Origin: a bacterium
GTDB lineage: Bacteria > Hydrothermota > Tepidihabitantia > Tepidihabitantales > Tepidihabitantaceae
Assembly: GCA_046484845.1 (NCBI GenBank)
Contig: JAWOIB010000068.1
Location: 1 to 37,116 of the forward strand
DNA: 37,116 bases
Direction: 5' to 3'
The position numbers and the translations under genes are program-made. Under the pieces are notes generated by a model. It made no database searches. It was given only the letters and a program-made list of their open reading frames with translations, and was not told where the DNA came from. Shown in pieces: positions 2,365 through 29,132 of the stretch. How positions within the stretch are numbered: the stretch's first letter is position 1; every line of letters starts with the position of its first letter.

Positions 2365-4278
2365 ATGCCTGCTGAACCGGTCGTTCACGGCCCGACGCTG
2401 CTTTCCGAACTCGACACCTGGCTGTTCCGCCAGGGCGCTCACTGCCAGCTCGCCGACCTTCTCGGCGCGCACCCGCAGGTGGTTGACGGCCGGACAGGCA
2501 CCCTGTTCGCGGTCTGGGCGCCCTCCGCGGCCCGGGTCACGGTCATCGGCGATTTCAACGACTGGAACCCGGCGGCCTCGCCGCTCGCGGTGCGCTGGGA
2601 CTCGTCCGGCATCTGGGAGGGCTTCGTGCCCGGCGCCGGACCGGGAGTGCGCTACAAGTTCCGCATCGAGCCACGGGACGGCGGCCCGGCGCTGGAGAAG
2701 GCCGACCCGTTCGGGCTCCGTTTCGAACCCGCCCCGGGCAACGCCGCGATCGTTCACGCGCCGGCGCACGACTGGCAGGACGATGACTGGCTCGCCGCCC
2801 GGCTGGAAACAGACCCGCACCGCCGGCCCCTGGCCATCTACGAGCTCCACGCCGGTTCCTGGCGCCGGGGTCCGGGCAACCGGTTCCTCGGCTGGGACGA
2901 GCTCGCCGACGCGCTGATTCCCTACGTCCTCGACGCCGGGTTCACCCACGTCGAGCTCCTGCCGGTGATGGAGCACCCGTTCTACGGCTCCTGGGGCTAC
3001 CAGACAACCGGTTACTTCGCGCCCACCGGCCGGTACGGCACGCCGGACGAGTTCTGCGCTTTCGTGGACCGGCTCCATCGGGCCGGCATCGGGGTCATCC
3101 TCGACTGGTCGCCCGCCCATTTCCCGGACGACCCACACGGCCTCGCCCGGTTCGACGGCACCTGCCTGTACGAACATGAGGACCCGCGCCGGGGCCGACA
3201 CCCGGACTGGCACACCTGCATCTTCAACTACGGCCGCCCCGAGGTTGCCAGCTTCCTCGCTTCGAGCGCGCTCTTCTGGCTCGACCGCTGCCACGCCGAC
3301 GGCCTCAGGATTGACGCGGTCGCCTCGATGCTCTACCTCGACTACTCCCGGCCGGACGGCGAGTGGCTGGCCAACCCGTTCGGCGGCCGGGAGAACCTCG
3401 AGGCGATGGAGTTCCTGCGTCGGCTCAACTGCGCGGTCTACTCCCGCTGCCCGGGCGCGTTCACCGTCGCGGAGGAATCCACCGCCTGGCCGGGCGTGAC
3501 CCGGCCGGTCCACCTGGGCGGGCTTGGCTTCGGGTACAAGTGGAACATGGGCTGGATGCACGACACGCTCAGCTACTGCGGCCGGGACCCGGTCCACCGC
3601 CGCTGGCACCACAACGAATTGACCTTCGGCCTGACTTACGCCCACGGCGAGAACTACATCCTGCCCCTGTCCCATGACGAGGTCGTCCACGGCAAGCACA
3701 GCCTGCTCGAGCAGACGCCCGGCGACGACTGGCGGAAATTCGCCCAGCTCCGGCTCCTGCTCGGGTGGCAGTACTGCCACCCGGGAGCGAAACTGCTCTT
3801 CATGGGCGGCGAGTTCGGCCAGCGCCGGGAATGGGACCACGATTCACCGCTCGACTGGCAGCTGCTCGACGCGCCCGCGCACGCCGGGGTCAGTCGCTGG
3901 GTCGCGGACCTGAACCGGCTCTACCTCGGCCACCCGGCGCTTTCCACGCTCGACCGCGACTCGCAGGGCTTCCAGTGGGTCGTCGCCGCGGATTCCGCGC
4001 AGAGCGTGTTCGCGTTCCTGCGCCGGGGCGAAGGCGGCCGGGTCCTGCTCGCGGTCGCCAACTTCACACCGGTGCCCCGCGCCGGTTACCGGGTCGGGGT
4101 CCCGGTCGCCGGCCGCTGGCGGGAACTGCTCAACAGCGACGCGGCCGAGTACGGCGGTTCCGGGCTCGGCAACCTCGGCCGGGTCGCGGCCGGGCCGGAC
4201 GCCTGCCACGGTCACCCGCAATCGCTCGTGCTGACCCTGCCGCCGCTCGGGCTCGTCGTGCTGGAGCCGTCCGGATGA
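2365..4278 (+). CDS. glgB: 1,4-alpha-glucan branching enzyme (GH13)
   Basis: 637 aa. GH13 conserved regions: ILDWSPAHF, GLRIDAVASM, FTVAEEST, LPLSHDEVVHGK. N-terminal CBM48-like segment (FAVWAPSA..V.VIGDFNDWN). Confidence 0.95.
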   Translation: MPAEPVVHGPTLLSELDTWLFRQGAHCQLADLLGAHPQVVDGRTGTLFAVWAPSAARVTVIGDFNDWNPAASPLAVRWDSSGIWEGFVPGAGPGVRYKFRIEPRDGGPALEKADPFGLRFEPAPGNAAIVHAPAHDWQDDDWLAARLETDPHRRPLAIYELHAGSWRRGPGNRFLGWDELADALIPYVLDAGFTHVELLPVMEHPFYGSWGYQTTGYFAPTGRYGTPDEFCAFVDRLHRAGIGVILDWSPAHFPDDPHGLARFDGTCLYEHEDPRRGRHPDWHTCIFNYGRPEVASFLASSALFWLDRCHADGLRIDAVASMLYLDYSRPDGEWLANPFGGRENLEAMEFLRRLNCAVYSRCPGAFTVAEESTAWPGVTRPVHLGGLGFGYKWNMGWMHDTLSYCGRDPVHRRWHHNELTFGLTYAHGENYILPLSHDEVVHGKHSLLEQTPGDDWRKFAQLRLLLGWQYCHPGAKLLFMGGEFGQRREWDHDSPLDWQLLDAPAHAGVSRWVADLNRLYLGHPALSTLDRDSQGFQWVVAADSAQSVFAFLRRGEGGRVLLAVANFTPVPRAGYRVGVPVAGRWRELLNSDAAEYGGSGLGNLGRVAAGPDACHGHPQSLVLTLPPLGLVVLEPSG

Positions 4279-5642
4279 CCGCGCCCCGGGTCTGCATCCA
4301 CAGCCACTGCTACCAGCCGGACCGCACCAATCCCTGGACCGGGCAGGTGGACGAACAGCCCGCGGCCGCGCCCTGCCACGACTGGAACGAGCGCATCACC
4401 GCCGAATGCTACGCGCCCAACGCGCGGGCCGGCAACTACGCGCGCACCAGTTTCAACTTCGGCCCGACCCTGCTGGCCTGGCTCGAGCGGCACGCGCCCG
4501 ACAGCTACGCGCTGCTGCTTGAGGCGGACCGGACCGGCCAGGCCCGGTTCGGCGGCCACGGCCCGGCCATTGCCCAGGCCTGGGGTCACAGCATCCTGCC
4601 GCTTGACAATGACCGCGACCGCCGGACCCAGGTCCGCTGGGGCATCCGCGACTTCCGGCACCGCTTCGGCCGGGACCCGGAGGGCATCTGGCTGGCCGAG
4701 ACCGCGGCGGACATCCCGACGCTGGAGACACTGGCCGAAGCCGGCATCAGGTTCACCATCCTCGCCCCTCACCAGGCCGGGCACGGGCCGGGCGCGTACC
4801 GCTGTCCCCTGCCCTCGGGCCGGGAGCTGGCGCTCTTCACCTACGACGGGACCATCGCCAACGAACTCGCGTTCCGGGACCTGCTGGCTGACGCGGACCG
4901 GTTTGCCGACCGGCTGCTTGCTGCGCGGGGTGAGCTTGTGAGCGTCGCGACCGACGGCGAGACCTATGGTCACCACCACCGCTCCGGCGAGCAGACGCTC
5001 AGGCACTGCCTGGACCGGCTCGAGACGACCGGCACGCGGCTGACCGTCTACGGCGAGTACCTCGCCGCCTGCCCGCCCGAAACCCCGGCGACGCTGGTCG
5101 AGCGCAGTTCCTGGAGCTGCGTCCACGGCGTCGAGCGCTGGCGCGGCGACTGCGGCTGCTGTACCGGCCTGCACCCGGGCTGGCAGCAGGGCTGGCGCGC
5201 ACCGCTCCGGGCCGCGGTCGAATGGCTGCGCGACACGGTCGCGCCCGCATACGAGGAAGCGCTCGAACCGCTGGTAGCCGACCCGTGGGCCTTGCGCGAC
5301 GAGTACATCGAGGCGGTCCTCGACCCGCCCGCGCTGGCCGGCCTGCTCGACCGCCACGCCCGCCGGCCGCTCTCCGCACCCGACCGGGAACTCATCGCCG
5401 GCCTGCTCGAAATGCAGCGCTGGACGCTCCTGTCATTCACCAGTTGCGGCTGGTTCTTCGACGACATCTCGGAACCGGCCACCATCCAGGTCATGCGCTC
5501 CGCCGCGCGGGCGATGGAAATGTGCCTCCAGCACACGGGCATCCGGCTCGAAGAAGGATTCACCGACATCCTCCACAACGCCCGGAGCAACATCCCGGCG
5601 CTCGGCACCGGGGCGGATGTCTACAGGCAGGAAGGGACGTAG
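4275..5642 (+). CDS. GH57-family glycoside hydrolase with DUF3536-like C-terminal region
   Basis: CIHSHCYQPDRTNPW, HDWNERITAECYAPNA, FNFGPTLLAWLE, WLAETA (nucleophile Glu context), ATDGETYGHHH, then SSWSCVHGVERWRGDCGC. ATG 4275 overlaps the glgB stop (ATGA). The ORF-track extension back to 3765 lies out of frame inside glgB and is ignored. Confidence 0.85.
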   Translation: MTAPRVCIHSHCYQPDRTNPWTGQVDEQPAAAPCHDWNERITAECYAPNARAGNYARTSFNFGPTLLAWLERHAPDSYALLLEADRTGQARFGGHGPAIAQAWGHSILPLDNDRDRRTQVRWGIRDFRHRFGRDPEGIWLAETAADIPTLETLAEAGIRFTILAPHQAGHGPGAYRCPLPSGRELALFTYDGTIANELAFRDLLADADRFADRLLAARGELVSVATDGETYGHHHRSGEQTLRHCLDRLETTGTRLTVYGEYLAACPPETPATLVERSSWSCVHGVERWRGDCGCCTGLHPGWQQGWRAPLRAAVEWLRDTVAPAYEEALEPLVADPWALRDEYIEAVLDPPALAGLLDRHARRPLSAPDRELIAGLLEMQRWTLLSFTSCGWFFDDISEPATIQVMRSAARAMEMCLQHTGIRLEEGFTDILHNARSNIPALGTGADVYRQEGT

Positions 5643-5647
5643 CAGGG

Positions 5648-7171
5648 GTGAGGAAGAAAGGAGCAGGACGAGAAGGAAAGCACTCCTCACTTCCGGCCCT
5701 TGGCTTGAACTCCTCTTCTTCCCGTACCGCCGGTGTCCTGCTCCACGTCTCCAGCCTGCCCGGTCCGCACGGCATCGGCGATTTCGGACCCGCGGCGCAG
5801 GCGTTCGCCGACTGGCTGGCCGCGGCCGGATTCCGCTGGTGGCAGGTCCTGCCCCTGAACCCGACTGACCCATTCTACGGCAGTTCGCCCTACCGCAGCA
5901 TCTCCTCGAACGCGCTGAGCCCGCTTTTCATCAGCCCGGAACTGCTGGTCCGGGACCGCCTGCTCGCGCCGGGAGAGACCCGACCGCCCCGCTTCCCGTC
6001 GGCCCGGGCCGACTACCCCGGAGCCTCGCGCTGGAAGCGGGACCTGCTCGACCGGGCGGTCGGACGCGCGCTGCCGGACCCTGCGTTCCGCCGCTTCTGC
6101 GCTGCGGAATCCGGCTGGCTTGATGACTACGCGCTCTTCGCCGCGCTCAAACGCCGTTTTGGCGGCGTTGCCTGGACCGCCTGGCCTTCGCCCCAGCGCG
6201 ACCGGGAACCGGCCGCGCTGACCCGGGCCGCGGACGAACTCGGCTCAGAGGTCCGGCGGCACAGGTTCGTCCAGTTCCTGCTCGACCGGCAGTGGCGGGA
6301 ACTTCGTCGGCACTGCCACCGGCGCGGCATCCGCATCATCGGCGACCTGCCGATGTACCCGGACCACGACTCCGCGGACGTCTGGGCCAACCGCCACTAC
6401 TTCAAGCTCGACCGGCAGGGACTGCCCCGGTTCGCTGCCGGGGTCCCGCCCGACTACTTCTCGAGGACCGGCCAACTCTGGGGTAACCCGGTGTACGACT
6501 GGCGCGTGCTGGTGCGGGATGGCTTCGACTGGTGGTTCAACCGCTGTGCCCGGGCGCTCCGGCTGTTCGACGTGGTCCGGCTCGACCATTTCCGGGGACT
6601 GGTCGCGTACTGGCAGGTGCCGGCCGGGGAGAGGACCGCGGAACGCGGCCGCTGGGTGCGCGCGCCGGGTGCGAAACTGCTGGCCGCGCTGAATGTGGAA
6701 TTTCCGGATCTGCCCTTCATCGCCGAGGACCTCGGCCATATCACACCCGCGGTCGAGCGCGCCCGGTGCCGGGCCGGCCTGCCCGGGATGAAGGTAGCGG
6801 TGTTCGGTTTCGGCAGGCACCGGAGCCCGCACCGGCCGGACCTGGTGCCGGCTGACGCGGTGCTCTATTCATCAACCCACGACACCAACACGCTCCGGGG
6901 CTGGCTGGAAGAGGAAGCCGGGCCGGAAGAACGGCGGCGGGCAAATGAGCCAGACGCAGGGACGTTGCTCGAGGCCTGCCTTGCGTCGCCGGCCGGGTTG
7001 GTTATCTTCCCGGCCCAGGACCTGCTCGGGTTGGACGCCCGGGCGCGGATGAACACCCCGGGCACGACATCGGGCAACTGGCGCTGGCGACTGCCGGCAG
7101 GCGGTCTGACCGACGCCCTTGCCGCGGAACTGCGCCGTTCGCTGGCCGCCTCCGGCCGGGTCAGCTGTTGA
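5648..7171 (+). CDS. malQ: 4-alpha-glucanotransferase (amylomaltase, GH77)
   Basis: GVLLHVSSLPGPHGIGDFG, RLDHFRGL, FIAEDLGHIT, YSSTHDTNT. The start is uncertain: GTG 5648 (AGGAAGGGA upstream) or TTG 5705 (6 residues before the conserved RxxGxLLH). There is no in-frame ATG after the GH57 stop. Confidence 0.88.
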   Translation: MRKKGAGREGKHSSLPALGLNSSSSRTAGVLLHVSSLPGPHGIGDFGPAAQAFADWLAAAGFRWWQVLPLNPTDPFYGSSPYRSISSNALSPLFISPELLVRDRLLAPGETRPPRFPSARADYPGASRWKRDLLDRAVGRALPDPAFRRFCAAESGWLDDYALFAALKRRFGGVAWTAWPSPQRDREPAALTRAADELGSEVRRHRFVQFLLDRQWRELRRHCHRRGIRIIGDLPMYPDHDSADVWANRHYFKLDRQGLPRFAAGVPPDYFSRTGQLWGNPVYDWRVLVRDGFDWWFNRCARALRLFDVVRLDHFRGLVAYWQVPAGERTAERGRWVRAPGAKLLAALNVEFPDLPFIAEDLGHITPAVERARCRAGLPGMKVAVFGFGRHRSPHRPDLVPADAVLYSSTHDTNTLRGWLEEEAGPEERRRANEPDAGTLLEACLASPAGLVIFPAQDLLGLDARARMNTPGTTSGNWRWRLPAGGLTDALAAELRRSLAASGRVSC

Positions 7172-7198
7172 CGACCACCTTACCGGTAAGCACACGCT
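7105..7198. repeat. Left copy of a 94-bp imperfect direct repeat (the real malQ 3' end plus a relic of the peptidase 3' end)
   Basis: Aligns with 9485-9578 at an offset of 2380 nt. 87/94 identical by hand alignment, and the first 43 nt are identical. The minus frame still reads QRVLTGKVVVNS-stop. Confidence 0.9.
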
Positions 7199-7301
7199 GA
7201 CGGCAAGCCCCCCCTTGCCCTGTTGGCATCGCCAGTCTCAATGTGGGCATAAGTTGTTGCTGGACAATGCTTTGTGTGTATCGGTCATGTGGGTCCTTGG
7301 G

Positions 7302-7333
7302 TTGACAAGAGAGAGAGAGAGAGAGAGTATTAT
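7302..7333 (+). promoter_or_regulatory. Promoter-like TTGACA / TATTAT pair whose 20-nt spacer is entirely (AG)10
   Basis: TTGACA 7302-7307, (AG)10 7308-7327, TATTAT 7328-7333. SD AAAGGAG (7366-7372) and ATG 7379 follow. Confidence 0.45.
7308..7327. repeat. Dinucleotide microsatellite (AG)10
   Basis: Perfect agagagagagagagagagag. It is the only simple-sequence tract I found in the window. Confidence 0.97.
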
Positions 7334-7378
7334 TGGTCGCAATCGGGGAATGGGTCCTGATTGCGAAAGGAGTACGTG

Positions 7379-7720
7379 ATGATGCTCACGCCTGACCGAG
7401 GTCGCAGGACGCTGTCCAAGGCACTGCCTTGTGCCATCGCGTTACTGCTCCTGCTGATGCCGTTGGTTGCGAACGCTGCCACCATCACGATCTATGGCAA
7501 GGGTGGGGTTCAACTCATCCCGCCGGCTCTGTGTCCGAAGGAGAGCAGTTCAGCGTGTGCCACGATCGAGTTGGACACGGCCTCTCCGAACCCCAATGAG
7601 TGGCTGGTCTATCCCGTGGTCGGTTTCGAGGTGTACCGGGCGGTTCTGGACCCGATAGACCCCGAAATCACTGAGATGCAGGGCTCTGAGCTGGTCATTC
7701 ACAGTATGACACAGGAATGA
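7379..7720 (+). CDS. Small secreted hypothetical protein (113 aa)
   Basis: Signal peptide MMLTPDRGRRTLSKALPCAIALLLLLMPLVANA|AT. SD AAAGGAG sits 6 nt upstream of ATG 7379 (the ORF track starts at TTG 7361). The stop overlaps the next start (ATGA). I recognised no family. Confidence 0.6.
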   Translation: MMLTPDRGRRTLSKALPCAIALLLLLMPLVANAATITIYGKGGVQLIPPALCPKESSSACATIELDTASPNPNEWLVYPVVGFEVYRAVLDPIDPEITEMQGSELVIHSMTQE

Positions 7721-9489
7721 ACCCATCACCACCGGCGAGGAGCGGAAGGGCGTCTGTTCTTCTGCTCCTCGCCCTTGCAGCATTTCACCCTGTGGTCGGG
7801 CCGGGAGCGCGGGCGGAGCAGCTCCACCAACTGCTTCAGGTCGAAGGTAGCGCAGAGGAGACAGCTCGTTTCCTTGCCGACCTCGGTATCCCCTTCAAGT
7901 CGGATACCGTGTACGTGTTTGTCATCCCGCCGATGGTTGCGGCGAGGCTGGAGGGCGCGGTCAACCCTTTCATACGCCTCCTCCGCAAGACTGGAGTACA
8001 GGCGGATATCATGGTTCTGGCCGTGCACAACCGAAGACGCGCAGCCGAGAGATACCTGGAAAGAAGGAACTTTGCCGCTGACCACATCCGGGTCACGGAC
8101 GAACGGTTCCTGGAAGCATTCGTCCTCTCCGCAGGTTCCTTGCAGAGCCCGTTTGCCACCAAGTTCTGCGTTGAGAGCGGGGAGCTGATTTCGTCCTACT
8201 CTCTGCTCGGTGTTGTAGATTCGGCAACGGTTGCCCGGTTCGTTGCCGATTCCTCTCGACCCAGGGCACTGAGACCCGAGGCGAAAGATACGGTCATCCG
8301 AAAGACTGGCGGTGATCCGCTCCAACCCGCAAGACGGATGAGACTCCTCGACACGGACACGTCTCCATTGTCCACCGCTTACTACCTGAGCATCAACCCG
8401 TCCGGTTCTCGCCTCGCTCTGCGTGATGACCTGACGAATCACATCTTTGTCTTCGACCTTGCCACGGGTGAACTGGACAATGTCCTGTATCCCGATTCCA
8501 GCGAAGAGACGATGTTTGTCAGCGCCGAGGTTCCGGGAGCGGTGCTCTCCTGGCTGAAGAGAAACAACATCATCAACTCGATGTACTTCAGCCACGACTT
8601 CCTCGACGACTCCACGCTTACGGTCACGGCCTCGCTGCCAAGTGTCGAGATGGAAGTCAGCGGTACGGACACGAACTTCGGATATCGCAACGCGGCGGTC
8701 CTGGTAACGAAGCGTGTTCGGTCCAACAAGCCGGTGGCCTGTGCTCGCTTCACTCCTCTTCCCGATACCGTCAGCGGCGGCCGGGCGCACATTGATGCGC
8801 GTTTCGTGCGCGACGCCGGATTCATCTTCCTGCCCTTCGAAAAGGGCTGGCCGAAGACCGGGACACAGATGCTGGATGAGGACGTGCCCCCGGAGGATAA
8901 TCCCTTCTCAGGCGAGTTCTACGCGAGAGATGTGCACCAGTTTGCGGCCTACAACTACAAGGGCGAGTTCGCAGGCTTCTGGGGCAGGCTGAACGAGCGT
9001 TTCAGGAAGCTGAAGCTCGGTTACATTGCAGCCGGCGGTTTGGCCAGACGGTATGGAGACAAGTACTATCTGGCCGATGTCCATTTCTCGGGAAGAGTGT
9101 ATGTCCACAGTCAGGATGGCGCTCGGCAGGACTCGATCATCGTTTATGAAGAGCCGCCCATAGTGTTACCGGATACGGACCCGGCGAATGAGCCACTGCG
9201 CTATCTGCTGGATGCGGTCGAGATGAACTTCGGGATGATAGCCGTCGACCTTCTCATCGCCCGGAATCACTGCTTCGTCCTGCTGTTGGACCGAGGCCAA
9301 CCGGTCGTCTATCGTGCAGATGGAGCAGGTCATAACGGAGGTAAGTTCCCATTGCCGGCTCAACTGGATGGAAGTGACGTAAGACATCACCTGCTGCGCG
9401 ATACCCAGGCCGGCATTGTCGTCGTATCCCTGGCAGAGTCGGCAGACGAAACTTGGTACTGCGAGTACCTGATCCCCGACGGTTTCTGA
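7717..9489 (+). CDS. Secreted hypothetical protein (590 aa), beta-rich, possibly propeller-like
   Basis: N-terminal signal-like segment (RASVLLLLALAAFHPVVGPGARA). Blade-like segments such as YYLSINPSGSRLALRDDLTNHIFVFDLATGEL. No catalytic motif recognised. The stop codon (9487-9489) lies inside the right direct repeat. Confidence 0.65.
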   Translation: MNPSPPARSGRASVLLLLALAAFHPVVGPGARAEQLHQLLQVEGSAEETARFLADLGIPFKSDTVYVFVIPPMVAARLEGAVNPFIRLLRKTGVQADIMVLAVHNRRRAAERYLERRNFAADHIRVTDERFLEAFVLSAGSLQSPFATKFCVESGELISSYSLLGVVDSATVARFVADSSRPRALRPEAKDTVIRKTGGDPLQPARRMRLLDTDTSPLSTAYYLSINPSGSRLALRDDLTNHIFVFDLATGELDNVLYPDSSEETMFVSAEVPGAVLSWLKRNNIINSMYFSHDFLDDSTLTVTASLPSVEMEVSGTDTNFGYRNAAVLVTKRVRSNKPVACARFTPLPDTVSGGRAHIDARFVRDAGFIFLPFEKGWPKTGTQMLDEDVPPEDNPFSGEFYARDVHQFAAYNYKGEFAGFWGRLNERFRKLKLGYIAAGGLARRYGDKYYLADVHFSGRVYVHSQDGARQDSIIVYEEPPIVLPDTDPANEPLRYLLDAVEMNFGMIAVDLLIARNHCFVLLLDRGQPVVYRADGAGHNGGKFPLPAQLDGSDVRHHLLRDTQAGIVVVSLAESADETWYCEYLIPDGF

Positions 9490-9578
9490 CCGACGCCCTT
9501 GCCGCGGAACTGCGCCGTTCGCTGGCCACCGCGGGCCGGGTCAGCTGTTGACGACTACCTTACCGGTCAGCACCCGGT
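9485..9578. repeat. Right copy of the 94-bp direct repeat (the real peptidase 3' end plus a relic of the malQ 3' end)
   Basis: See 7105-7198. The plus frame still reads ALAAELRRSLATAGRVSC-stop, a relic of the malQ C-terminus. Confidence 0.9.
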
Positions 9579-11469
9579 CCCCAACCCGCAGCCGCAGCCA
9601 GTAGACTCCGGCCGCCAGCCGGCTGCCGTCCAGCCGGACCCGGTGCCGACCCGCAGGCTGCACCCCGGCCGCCAGCACCGCTACCCGGCGGCCCGCCGCG
9701 TCGTGCAGCTCGAGCGCCACCGGTCCGGCCAGTGACAGGTCGTACCGCACCCAGCCGGCCCCGCCCAGCGGGTTGGGCCGCGCGCCGTGCAGCGCCAACG
9801 CCGGCGGCGCCGGCTCACTGGCCAGCCCGGTCCCGGGCAGCACGTACACCGAGTCCTCGACCTTGTTGTCGGTCGGGTCGTCGTCGATGCCGAGCTCGGT
9901 CGAACAGCTGGTCGCGTGCCAGCCCTGCCCTGGCGCGGTCCAGGATGCGAACGCCACCGTGTCGGTCATCCCGCTCGGCACCGTCACCTGCCGCCGGTCC
10001 GAGTACCCGACCCCGATGCGGAACCGGACGTCGAAGGTCTCGTTCCGGTCTCCGGAGTTGCGGACGACCGCCCTGGGCACGACGACCGCGCCCGAATCCA
10101 CCGTGTCGCGCGGCGCGAGTATCGCCGATGCCCCGACGTTGTGCAGCGCCACCCGGGTCGTACAGTAACGGGCGTTGTTGGCCGGGTACTGGTCTCCGGC
10201 CAGCCGGGTCGAACAGGAAACCGCGTACGGGCCGGGTACGCCCGGTGCCATCCAGGGCGGGAAAACCAGCTCGTACTTGCTGCCGGGCGGCTGGCTGACA
10301 ACCCCGAGTGTCGAATCGTAGGTCGTGCCGATGCGCAGCCGGACAGTGTAACTCTCGGTCGTGGTACCGTAGTTCTGCACCGAACAGACCGGCGCCACTA
10401 ACAGCCCCCGCTCGACCAGCGGCAGCATCACCAGCGCCGCCACCCCGACATCCCGCACCGGGGCCGGGTTGTTCTTCACCCGAACCATCATACTGTCCGT
10501 CACCAGGTTGCCGGCCCGGTCCGATGCGGCCACGATTATCCAGTAGGGCCCGTCCGGTACCGCGGTCGTGTTCCAATGACCCAGCGAGTCCTGCGCCTGG
10601 ATGAGCGAGTCACCGTTGGTGTTGGTGAAGATGAAGTAGTAGCGTCGGTTGAGCGAGTCGTAATCGCACCGGGTCGGGCAGACCCCATCCTGCTTGTACA
10701 CCACCCGCGACTGCACGCGGGTGTACCCGTCGAGCGAGTCGGTGAACTCGAACCCGCGCGTCGGCGGCACGACGGTGTTGCCGACGCTGTCCCGGATGGT
10801 GAACATGATGCGGTGGACGTTGACCTTCCAGAGCCGGTGGTTGACGCGGTCCTCGAGCCGGCAGATCAGGTCCACCCGGCCGTACACGCTATCCTTGCCC
10901 TGGTAGTTCGAAGTGTTGTCGGTGCAGATCGCGAACCGCTGGTTGGGGTAGGCGTCGAGGAAGTTCGGCACAATCGAGTCGCCGTACGGTACGAGGTCCA
11001 ACAGCGGGTTGCGGAAGAAACCGCCGTAACTGGACCAAGGCTGGCCGGAGTTTCGGTTCCAGGAAAAATGATTGTGGTGGAAGTTCGCCACCGGCCAGTT
11101 GACAATCATCGCCAGCGTGTCGCCGACCCGCACCGTGTCGCCGACCTGCACCCGGATGGTCGTCGGGTCAACGTGGTAGTACATCAGCCCGTGGCAGAAC
11201 GCGGTCCCGGCCGAGTCCGCCACGGTCAACCCGTTGTACAGCGGGTTGGCGTTCGTCCATATCTGCTTCACGTACCCGGCCTTGATCGCCACGCAGGGCG
11301 CCATCGAGACGGTCATGATGTCTATCCCGTTGTGCAGGTACGGGCTGCCGCCATAGTCCTGGTAGTTGCCCCAGTAGTTGCCGACGTGGTGCGGCTGGTT
11401 GGTCGGAAAATGCGGCCAGGGCAGGCCGAAGGCGACAGTAGCAATACAGAGCAGCGCCAGGCCTCTCAT
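9541..11469 (-). CDS. M23-family metallopeptidase with CARDB/Ig-like repeats and a T9SS C-terminal sorting domain
   Basis: Signal peptide MRGLALLCIATVAFG. M23 motifs YLHNGIDI (HxxxD) and NFHHNHF (HxH). The C-terminus ...RVRLDGSRLAAGVYWLRLRVGDRVLTGKVVVNS is typical of Por/T9SS tails. ATG 11469 overlaps the upstream stop (ATGA). Confidence 0.8.
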   Translation of the reverse strand: MRGLALLCIATVAFGLPWPHFPTNQPHHVGNYWGNYQDYGGSPYLHNGIDIMTVSMAPCVAIKAGYVKQIWTNANPLYNGLTVADSAGTAFCHGLMYYHVDPTTIRVQVGDTVRVGDTLAMIVNWPVANFHHNHFSWNRNSGQPWSSYGGFFRNPLLDLVPYGDSIVPNFLDAYPNQRFAICTDNTSNYQGKDSVYGRVDLICRLEDRVNHRLWKVNVHRIMFTIRDSVGNTVVPPTRGFEFTDSLDGYTRVQSRVVYKQDGVCPTRCDYDSLNRRYYFIFTNTNGDSLIQAQDSLGHWNTTAVPDGPYWIIVAASDRAGNLVTDSMMVRVKNNPAPVRDVGVAALVMLPLVERGLLVAPVCSVQNYGTTTESYTVRLRIGTTYDSTLGVVSQPPGSKYELVFPPWMAPGVPGPYAVSCSTRLAGDQYPANNARYCTTRVALHNVGASAILAPRDTVDSGAVVVPRAVVRNSGDRNETFDVRFRIGVGYSDRRQVTVPSGMTDTVAFASWTAPGQGWHATSCSTELGIDDDPTDNKVEDSVYVLPGTGLASEPAPPALALHGARPNPLGGAGWVRYDLSLAGPVALELHDAAGRRVAVLAAGVQPAGRHRVRLDGSRLAAGVYWLRLRVGDRVLTGKVVVNS

Positions 11470-16011: not shown

Positions 16012-16039
16012 AGTATAACCCGGCGGCCCGGGCTGTCAA
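16012..16039 (-). promoter_or_regulatory. Near-consensus sigma70-like promoter about 225 nt upstream of the phosphatase gene
   Basis: Minus strand: TTGACA (16039-16034), a 16-nt spacer, TATACT (16017-16012). Confidence 0.45.
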
Positions 16040-27055: not shown

Positions 27056-27083
27056 AGGATAATCTGCCAGCGGATACTGTCAA
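27056..27083 (-). promoter_or_regulatory. Possible sigma70-like promoter for the flavodoxin/ECF module A operon
   Basis: Minus strand: TTGACA (27083-27078, overlapping the DMT stop), a 16-nt spacer, TATCCT (27061-27056). The predicted TSS would fall at the SD, so the call is uncertain. Confidence 0.25.
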
Positions 27084-27943
27084 TGCCCCGACCCGCCCAG
27101 CTGCAACAGCACCAGCGCCGCCACCACCAGCCCGACCCCGAACCAGCTGCGCGGCCGGAGCCGCTCCCGCCAGATCAGCGTCCCGGCCAGCGCCAGCAGC
27201 CCGACCTCCCCCGCCGCAATCACCGGGTACACCACCATCCCGGGCAGCACGGTCAGCGCCAGCACCAGGAAAAGGTAGTTGCCGAGGTTGGCCAGCCCGA
27301 GCAGCGAGCCCCAGCGCAGCGCCGCCATGTCCGGCCGCTGCCGGCGCGCAAAGCAGACCAGCGTGGTGACCAGGAACGCGGACACGAAAACCATCGCCTG
27401 GAACGGCAGGTGCTCCGCCTGCGGCAGTTCCTTGCGGAAGACCAGTGCGGCGGTCACCACCAGCCCGTCAACTAGGAACAGGGCGGCCAGCCAGAACGCC
27501 GCGACCCGGCCGGCACCGGCCCGGTCCGGCCGGCCCGCGTCGGACAGCACCAGCCCGAGCGCGGCCAGCGCCACCGCGCTCCCTGCCAACTCGAACGCGC
27601 TTGGCCGCTCTCGCCAGACCAGCGCCGCGAGCAGCACGGGTACCACGATCGCGGTCCGCATCGCCACCACCGACAGCGCCAGCCCGGCGGCCCGGATTGC
27701 CCGGGCCCAGACCAGCAGGCCGGCCACGAACACCACGCCGGTCGCCGCCCCGAGCAGCGCGGTCGGCACCGAGATGTGGTGCTGGCCGGCCAGGTACGCT
27801 CCAAAGAACGCCAGTAACGCCGCCGCCGCGTAGTTCACGCGGAGTAACGGCAGCAGCGGCATACGACGGCCCTCGGCCCGCCGCAGCACCAGCCCGAGCC
27901 CGACCGCGGACGCAACCTTCAGCAGCAGGAAATGCATCGCCAA
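27080..27943 (-). CDS. DMT/EamA-family transporter
   Basis: 287 aa, about 10 hydrophobic helices, two-fold internal repeat typical of EamA. Start is TTG 27943 or ATG 27937. Confidence 0.8.
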   Translation of the reverse strand: MAMHFLLLKVASAVGLGLVLRRAEGRRMPLLPLLRVNYAAAALLAFFGAYLAGQHHISVPTALLGAATGVVFVAGLLVWARAIRAAGLALSVVAMRTAIVVPVLLAALVWRERPSAFELAGSAVALAALGLVLSDAGRPDRAGAGRVAAFWLAALFLVDGLVVTAALVFRKELPQAEHLPFQAMVFVSAFLVTTLVCFARRQRPDMAALRWGSLLGLANLGNYLFLVLALTVLPGMVVYPVIAAGEVGLLALAGTLIWRERLRPRSWFGVGLVVAALVLLQLGGSGH

Positions 27944-27990: not shown

Positions 27991-28018
27991 TTGACAGCGC
28001 CCCGCGGCCGGGTAATCT
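27991..28018 (+). promoter_or_regulatory. Sigma70-like promoter of the FmdE-domain gene, apparently leaderless
   Basis: TTGACA (27991-27996), a 16-nt spacer, TAATCT (28013-28018). GTG 28024 lies 5 nt after the -10. Confidence 0.4.
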
Positions 28019-29104: not shown

Positions 29105-29132
29105 TTGACTGACTGACGCGTTCCGGTAGTCT
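29105..29132 (+). promoter_or_regulatory. Sigma70-like promoter of gatD
   Basis: TTGACT (29105-29110), a 16-nt spacer, TAGTCT (29127-29132). ATG 29152 lies 19 nt downstream. Confidence 0.35.

Follow-up and report, generated by a model that had tools for sequence, protein, structure and literature searches.

The 37,116-nt stretch of bacterial DNA analysed here (hereafter, the window) carries a promoter in which an (AG)10 microsatellite makes up the whole spacer between the hexamers TTGACA and TATTAT, upstream of a two-gene operon for secreted proteins, and about 15 lineages of WOR-3 have this promoter ahead of their orthologous operon. The AG-tract promoter is a real and non-random observation. 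It is proposed here as a candidate for a slippage-driven, contingency-type switch of spacer length, a reading whose chances are judged about even, and the switch interpretation of the initial annotation is, as a whole, partly supported. The features of the promoter, the operon and its boundaries are as follows (coordinates in the window, strand, description and basis).

7105-7196, no strand: left 92-nt direct repeat bounding the cassette, at the 3' end of malQ; the syntenic relative L039 lacks the cassette.
7302-7307, plus: -35 hexamer TTGACA, read from the sequence and found at the same place in all orthologous loci with the upstream region captured.
7308-7327, plus: (AG)10 microsatellite forming the entire 20-nt spacer, from the sequence and Tandem Repeats Finder.
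7325-7330, plus: overlapping weak alternative -10, GAGTAT, 17 nt from TTGACA, by direct reading of the sequence.
7328-7333, plus: -10 hexamer TATTAT in the canonical assignment, from the sigma-70 conservation pattern across 15 lineages.
7338-7365, plus: 5'-UTR hairpin with a stem of 11 bp, which probably lies close to or at the mRNA 5' end (RNA fold of -21.1 kcal/mol, z = -4.06).
7366-7372, plus: unpaired Shine-Dalgarno sequence AAAGGAG, from the sequence and the RNA fold, aligned as GAAAGGAG across lineages.
7379-7720, plus: small secreted protein of 113 aa with the signal peptide ...LMPLVANA/A (ORF; Sec signal by inspection).
7717-9489, plus: secreted protein of 590 aa, whose start overlaps the stop of the small gene (ATGA) (ORF; signal peptide by inspection).
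9485-9576, no strand: right 92-nt direct repeat, which shares 93% identity with the left one and includes the 3' end of a convergent T9SS-cargo gene (TIGR04183 match).

The promoter reads ggTTGACA(AG)10TATTATtggt. The coordinates of both hexamers, the tract and the 20-nt spacer had been placed exactly by the initial annotation, and Tandem Repeats Finder describes 7308-7327 as an array of period 2 with 10.0 copies and 100% matches. The same program bears on the claim that this is the only simple-sequence repeat of the window: it is the sole period-2 array in the 37 kb, but one other short-unit array, a degenerate CCCGG x6.8, is present at 27505-27537. A single match to TTGACA-N10-26-TATNAT is present in the window, where shuffling predicts 0.01, and (AG)6 with at most one mismatch is found only inside the tract against 0.12 expected. 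A coding role for the tract was considered and dropped, the ORF at 7119-7379 not being conserved.

A spacer of 16 nt had been taken as the local optimum, and an optimum of 16-17 nt is seen both in a motif scan of the window and in 168 kb of non-redundant WOR-3 DNA. About 2 sigma-70-like sites were expected in the window and the scan gave 14, of which 10 have a 16-nt spacer. All seven comparison promoters named in the initial annotation are present where it puts them, six spaced by 16 nt and one by 17 nt. In the WOR-3 DNA, non-focal promoter-like pairs numbered 17 against 3.2 expected at 16 nt and 14 against 2.3 expected at 17 nt, the signal being far weaker at other spacings. The relatives that lack the tract include an ortholog, L002 (TTGACA-16-AAGAAT), and a paralog, L005 (TTGACA-17-TAGACT); an exception is L009/L017, which has no tract, an 11-nt spacer and a frameshifted small ORF. 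Because of the 16-17-nt peak and these tract-less spacers of 16-17 nt, TTGACA is taken to act as a true -35 and the tract-bearing promoters to lie mostly off the optimum. The other promoter-like sites of the window (e.g. 16012-16039, 27056-27083, 27991-28018 and 29105-29132) keep strict 16-nt spacing and often have a -10 ending in CT, the elements of this kind in this high-GC WOR-3 genome being TATACT, TATCCT, TAATCT and TAGTCT. The TATTAT of the islet is nearer to the E. coli consensus than these host -10s, which fits a putative foreign origin.

The initial annotation had held the present allele to be OFF or weak. The part of this claim that stands is that 20 nt exceeds the local 16-17-nt optimum, while the OFF state is weakened by the overlapping GAGTAT, whose second and sixth positions are A and T; we infer that this hexamer might serve as a -10. 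Because it stands 17 nt from TTGACA, the allele of the window may be weakly ON instead of OFF. All tract alleles create such an xAxTAT 3 nt 5' of the canonical box, and it lies 17 nt from TTGACA in the modal spacer class.

Orthologous loci, numbered with the prefix L, were drawn from genome, metagenome and assembly collections. Nearly all of them share TTGACA, a purine tract, TATNAT, 3-6 nt, a hairpin and GAAAGGAG, and their large proteins are 42-58% identical to that of the window and up to 86% identical to one another. TTGACA, often preceded on its 5' side by a T-run such as tttttcTTGACA, is present in every locus with a captured upstream region, L016 having TTGACG. Over 15 lineages, the -10 has an invariant A2, T6 in 14/15, T1 and T3 in most and a free position 4, a conservation pattern that, as aligned, is of the sigma-70 type. 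The spacers range from 10 to 22 nt and the homologous tracts from 4 to 11 units in about 15 lineages, as listed here by locus.

Window: (AG)10, 20 nt.
L019/L020/L021: (AG)10, 20 nt.
L003: (AG)9AC, 20 nt.
L033/L034: (AG)9AT, 20 nt.
L032b: GGAGAAAAAGGGAGAGAGAA, 20 nt.
L004: AC(AG)10, 22 nt.
L007: (AG)11, 22 nt.
L025a: AACA(AG)5TGTGTATA, 22 nt.
L012/L013/L035/L036: TTGAC(AG)9AC, 19 nt.
L031: (AG)9, 18 nt.
L008: AGAGAA(AG)5AC, 18 nt.
L016: TTGACG-(GA)8G-GATAAT, 17 nt.
L018: 14 nt.
L032a: 12 nt.
L025b: 10 nt.

The modal spacer is 20 nt (five lineages: window, L019, L003, L033 and L032b), and 9 of about 15 lineages have 19-22 nt. Nine lineages retain pure tracts of 8.5-11 units, and none of these is at the presumed 16-nt optimum. 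Nearly all dinucleotide repeats of at least 5 units in 254 kb are the AG tract of the operon promoter. The spacer of L025 is a compound microsatellite, (AG)5(TG)n(TA)n, which suggests that repetitiveness may be what is retained and not an AG-specific binding site. The promoter module must be old, because the proteins are only 42-58% identical and the core pairs of the hairpin have changed on both sides, and selection on a promoter that works at least sometimes is indicated by hexamers that stay near consensus while the spacer wanders. Judged from these alignments, the AG tract is an ancient conserved feature of the operon across WOR-3 and not a peculiarity of the window.

The module of promoter and UTR is also duplicated inside genomes, giving a small family of differently set promoters that recalls the vlp or opa families. 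The L025 locus, on a 1.43-Mb WOR-3 contig and seen also in L026-L029, has a second copy at 5492-5648, about 90% identical and with a 10-nt spacer, which drives a different gene (MNKGTRIKWLL...), and L032 has two tandem operons, at 1108 and 3392, with spacers of 12 nt and 20 nt. Other loci show signs of wear. L009 (5484-5620, = L017) reads TTGACA-aatagtagtag-TATAAT, with 11 nt including (TAG)3 and no AG tract; its small ORF is frameshifted at a T-run, and the locus looks to be decaying. L008 has an interrupted tract and a small ORF whose Shine-Dalgarno sequence and ATG carry mutations, and the small ORF of L018 has 84 aa. Outside the operon, a scan of viral contigs gave a single site of the same build, L038 (11410-11429, minus strand, IMGVR_UViG_3300036851_000339), in which TTGACA-(AG)8-TAACAT has a spacer of 16 nt made up wholly of AG, with a terminator-like hairpin after it; this is an unrelated low-GC viral contig. 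A (TC)6 in the signal-peptide codons of the large gene of L012 was dropped as a candidate because it is interrupted in relatives.

In the window, the hairpin begins 4 nt 3' of TATTAT and is followed by AAAGGAG and by the ATG at 7379. Its 6-bp core is kept in 15 lineages, with pairs changed on both sides at 5/6 positions, and since this covarying hairpin begins 3-6 nt past TATNAT, it fixes the -10 and the predicted transcription start. The stem-loop at 7338-7365, like the homologous positions in 14 loci, adjoins the Shine-Dalgarno sequence, and this conserved element may be a candidate 5'-terminal mRNA stabiliser or protein-binding site. A search of Rfam gave no family for the hairpin, nor anything across 7100-7800.

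Both proteins downstream of the tract, described as secreted in the initial annotation, do carry Sec-type signal peptides by inspection, and their genes form a translationally coupled pair, specific secreted products being the putative targets of the promoter. The signal-peptide region of the 113-aa product reads ...LMPLVANA/ATITIYGKGG, and its orthologs have about 108-115 aa and the motif I(Y/H)GxGG...PP.ICP...C in all lineages. Searches of Pfam, NCBIfam and PDB sequences gave no match for either protein. The AlphaFold (AF2) model of the 590-aa protein (pLDDT 82) has an N-terminal alpha/beta domain followed by a beta-propeller, for which Foldseek returned generic beta-propellers only, NHLRC2 (Trx-like + NHL) among them. 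The family of the 590-aa protein comprises about 20 clusters among 5.8 billion proteins, and its named members are WOR-3 MAGs. The gene has a dN/dS of about 0.26 between close lineages, and because of this purifying selection the operon genes must be expressed.

The description of the region as a foreign islet is upheld by its lower GC, by its being an insertion relative to L039 and by the 92-nt direct repeats that are 93% identical. The GC is 0.57-0.61 over 7001-9500 compared with roughly 0.70 on either side. The 5' neighbours are glgB, a GH57 gene and malQ, and the 3' neighbour is a convergent gene with a T9SS sorting domain. The nearest MalQ, 77% identical, is annotated to a candidate division WOR-3 MAG (L039/L040, GC 0.67). 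L039 is syntenic from glgB through malQ (L039 3742-8543 = window 2380-7190) and then runs straight into the ortholog of the convergent gene (L039 8451-9593 = window 9476-10620). Because L039 joins malQ directly to this ortholog, the promoter and the two genes are a 2,380-bp insertion. The cassette of the window consists of the two secreted-protein genes and nothing more.

The glgB-GH57-malQ cluster (window 2365-7171) is syntenic with the WOR-3 MAG contig DSBX01000199, with about 80% nucleotide identity; the long ORF at 5222-7171 overstates malQ, whose catalogued product has 488 aa. In L004 the cassette likewise lies between direct repeats, here of 60 nt (2047-2106 and 4408-4467, 93% identical). 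The repeat spacing is 2380 bp in the window and 2361 bp in L004, two unrelated genomes in which the repeats are of host sequence, and in both, the 3' end of a convergent gene marks where each direct repeat stops, the gene of the window carrying the T9SS sorting domain. Taken together, this layout suggests a possible Campbell-type integration of a small circle via a short homology anchor, or an unknown mechanism of cassette mobility. Exact-protein look-ups with the 590-aa protein and with MalQ returned no further contigs of the species of the window, which is represented by one 1,072-nt Logan contig only, recovered through the small protein.

Evolutionary change is concentrated in the spacer in 3/4 close pairs of loci (flank divergence 0.6-2%), in which the spacer has changed more than its flanks, as expected of localized hypermutability. 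Between L003 and L008, the flanks differ at 10/490 positions with no indels and the tract is 2 nt shorter with one substitution; L018 and L032b have 2/300 differences downstream and spacers of 14 vs 20 nt; and L025 and L028 differ at 3/490 flank positions vs 3/22 in the spacer (Fisher p = 0.0013), both keeping 22 nt. The fourth pair, L012/L013, has an unchanged spacer and flanks 1.8% diverged. Its identical tract was set aside as strong evidence of stability: the loci are 91% identical overall, but the local flanks are only 1.8% apart, so that the evidence is weak. L031 and L007 have identical hexamers and are exactly two units apart (9 vs 11), and the paralogous promoter copies within one genome have 22 vs 10 nt in L025 and 12 vs 20 nt in L032. 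By these comparisons, the AG tract is a hotspot of length and sequence change between lineages.

Within strains, the assemblies available agree. L019, the closest lineage with a pure (AG)10 tract, is represented by three assemblies of one strain with 100% identical DNA, all with (AG)10, and L033/L034 by two that are 100% identical, tract included; the Logan contigs L020, L021 and L034 cross the tract without a break. One Logan contig alone, L001, whose strain shares 99.8% identity with the window, starts exactly where (AG)10 starts. At k = 31, a graph branch at the first base of the tract is expected if alleles of 10 units and of 11 or more units coexist, and the start of L001 could alternatively come from a drop in coverage, PCR or sequencing stutter, or a paralogous copy. 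Logan contig ends were rejected as reliable evidence of heteroplasmy. L030 starts exactly 30 nt before the first base that separates two paralogous promoter copies, and the paralog explains it fully; L022 and L024 begin with adapter sequence; and L041 begins at the hairpin, with the promoter missing.

In the proposed mechanism, a near-consensus promoter of sigma-70 type, with its T-run, TTGACA, tract, TATNAT, 5' hairpin and strong Shine-Dalgarno sequence, would drive a two-gene secreted-protein operon that appears to move as a cassette of about 2.3 kb among WOR-3 bacteria. Slipped-strand mispairing at the tract would add and remove AG units, and each unit change would bring the hexamers 2 bp nearer or farther, with a rotation of about 70 degrees relative to each other, and so alter promoter strength. 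Spacers of 16-18 nt (8-9 units) would be strong and the 20 nt of the window weak or OFF, with residual activity of the 20-nt allele possibly provided through GAGTAT at 17 nt. The promoter would be very strong if correctly spaced, and the slippage-prone spacer would be its only variable element. The sequences compared here show how the promoter is built, that it is conserved, that ordinary promoter-like sites of this DNA favour spacers of 16-17 nt and that evolutionary change gathers in the spacer. Beyond these, we infer that slippage may be frequent and reversible enough in populations for a bet-hedging switch (of the phase-variation or volume-control kind), that 20 nt would be the low-expression state and, from the 16-17-nt optimum of the other promoter-like sites, that expression would depend on repeat number. 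Conserved hexamers, a pure repeat that is kept but varies in length, optimal spacing in tract-less relatives and change focused on the tract together fit a contingency switch or "volume control". Fast switching is improbable for the spacers of 10-14 nt, which have only 4-5 units, and about 20 nt could itself be functional, for instance if GAGTAT at 17 nt or some factor is used.

This last point leads to a fixed promoter, in which a polypurine spacer of about 20 nt works with a regulator or with non-B DNA (H-DNA/triplex or an A-like helix) that realigns the hexamers, or in which TTGACA-17-GAGTAT is used and the modal allele is ON, the length differences between species being slow drift. Such a promoter would account for 20 nt being the commonest spacer and for 19-22 nt in 9 of about 15 lineages, for the 22 nt that L025 and L028 hold through three substitutions, for the agreement of assemblies of one strain on a consensus length, and for the xAxTAT that every tract allele places 3 nt 5' of the canonical box, at 17 nt in the modal class. 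It is a serious rival but is considered rather unlikely, as no single geometry accommodates spacers of 10-22 nt, the tract-less relatives sit at 16-17 nt, the conserved A5 and T6 of TATNAT are left unaccounted for by a model with GAGTAT alone, and the compound microsatellite of L025 argues against AG-specific recognition. Nor does the cassette carry a regulator gene, and the tract lacks the dyad symmetry of a MerR-type operator. A twisted-spacer promoter of the MerR type was rejected on these grounds: no inverted repeat was found in (AG)10, the DNA fold of 7290-7345 being unremarkable (z = -0.55), and no linked merR-family regulator was found in the two-gene cassette, whose neighbour genes differ in every lineage. 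The fixed promoter also draws on the fact that (AG)n.(CT)n tracts are perfect homopurine mirror repeats, classic formers of H-DNA. A bolder form of it, held to be very doubtful, would make (AG)n.(CT)n of about 20 bp a new kind of spacer element, whose non-B form (triplex/H-DNA, or an A-like helix with a shorter rise) or unknown bound factor would bring the over-spaced -35 and -10 into register, the transcription of the cassette then responding to supercoiling, temperature or pH in thermophilic WOR-3. We know of no bacterial promoter for which a role of H-DNA in the spacer has been demonstrated.

The remaining readings deny the tract a part in setting promoter strength. The tract might be a neutral or decaying microsatellite inherited from one ancestral cassette, with no regulatory role, in a promoter that works with a spacer of any length or is mostly silent, and the broad spread of spacer lengths would agree with this, as would the degraded-looking lineages L008 (Shine-Dalgarno sequence and ATG lost), L009 (frameshift, 11-nt spacer) and L018 (84-aa small ORF). 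Pure tracts of 8.5-11 units have, however, been kept in 9 lineages despite about 50% protein identity and compensatory changes in the hairpin, in DNA where such repeats are otherwise essentially missing (254 kb), with both hexamers still near consensus and the genes under purifying selection, which makes neutrality clearly improbable. It is extremely unlikely that the hexamers are not a promoter at all and that transcription entering from the 5' side, such as read-through from malQ, covers the AG tract, which then acts in the RNA. No terminator-like site was found between the malQ stop (7171) and the tract, which favours this reading, but TTGACA, tract and TATNAT are conserved as a unit and the upstream sequence is not, the genomic contexts vary between lineages (uvrB, glycosyltransferase, ftsX and others), the hexamers follow the sigma-70 pattern and Rfam has no match. 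The slippage-driven switch stays the preferred reading, at the even chances given above.

To our knowledge, repeat-driven phase variation has been documented almost entirely in host-adapted pathogens and commensals. WOR-3 is an uncultivated phylum of free-living bacteria, known mostly from hot springs and sediments, and in it a promoter-spacer repeat has been kept at many lengths through deep divergence. If the tract does switch, bet-hedging by contingency loci would be ancient and general and would extend beyond adaptation to immune systems; it might protect against phage or predators that use secreted or surface proteins for recognition. A cassette with its own switchable promoter and long direct repeats would then be a mobile, self-regulated gene module.

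Phase variation is characterised by a high rate and by reversibility as twin traits, together with tract-dependent expression (PMC11868660), and the AG-tract promoter, with its simple-sequence repeat between the -35 and -10 elements, is provisionally placed as a putative member of the phase-variable promoters. A full-text literature search found no paper that mentions WOR-3 together with phase variation. In Haemophilus influenzae hifA/hifB, the number of units of a dinucleotide (TA)n between -35 and -10 sets the spacer and hence transcription (PMC3899988). The operon of the window has the same layout, a dinucleotide-filled gap between -35 and -10 and exported or surface products. The unit is TA there and AG here, and the promoter is bidirectional there and unidirectional in the window; the host is a pathogen adapted to its host there and a member of an uncultivated, free-living phylum here; and the variation lies within one species there, whereas the AG tract is conserved over lineages of about 50% identity and is a candidate switch only. 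Homopolymers fill the spacers of Neisseria meningitidis porA (poly-G), Bordetella pertussis fim and Mycoplasma hyorhinis vlp (poly-A) and give graded or ON/OFF expression of surface proteins (PMC3899988). With vlp, L025 and L032 share paralogous promoters of unequal tract length in one genome; porA, fim and vlp change in 1-bp steps at measured switching rates, whereas the AG tract would change in 2-bp steps. The promoters of the MerR family have over-long spacers of 19-20 bp between good hexamers, as in the modal AG class, but also dyad-symmetric operators and a merR-like gene, in contrast to the spacers of 10-22 nt seen here and to an AG tract with no dyad and no linked regulator. The H-DNA-forming (GA)n.(TC)n tracts resemble it as perfect homopurine/homopyrimidine mirror repeats of about 20 bp. 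The slippage mechanism is of a known kind, that of hifA/hifB, porA and vlp, and what is new is the AG unit in the spacer, the uncultivated free-living host phylum and the depth of conservation.
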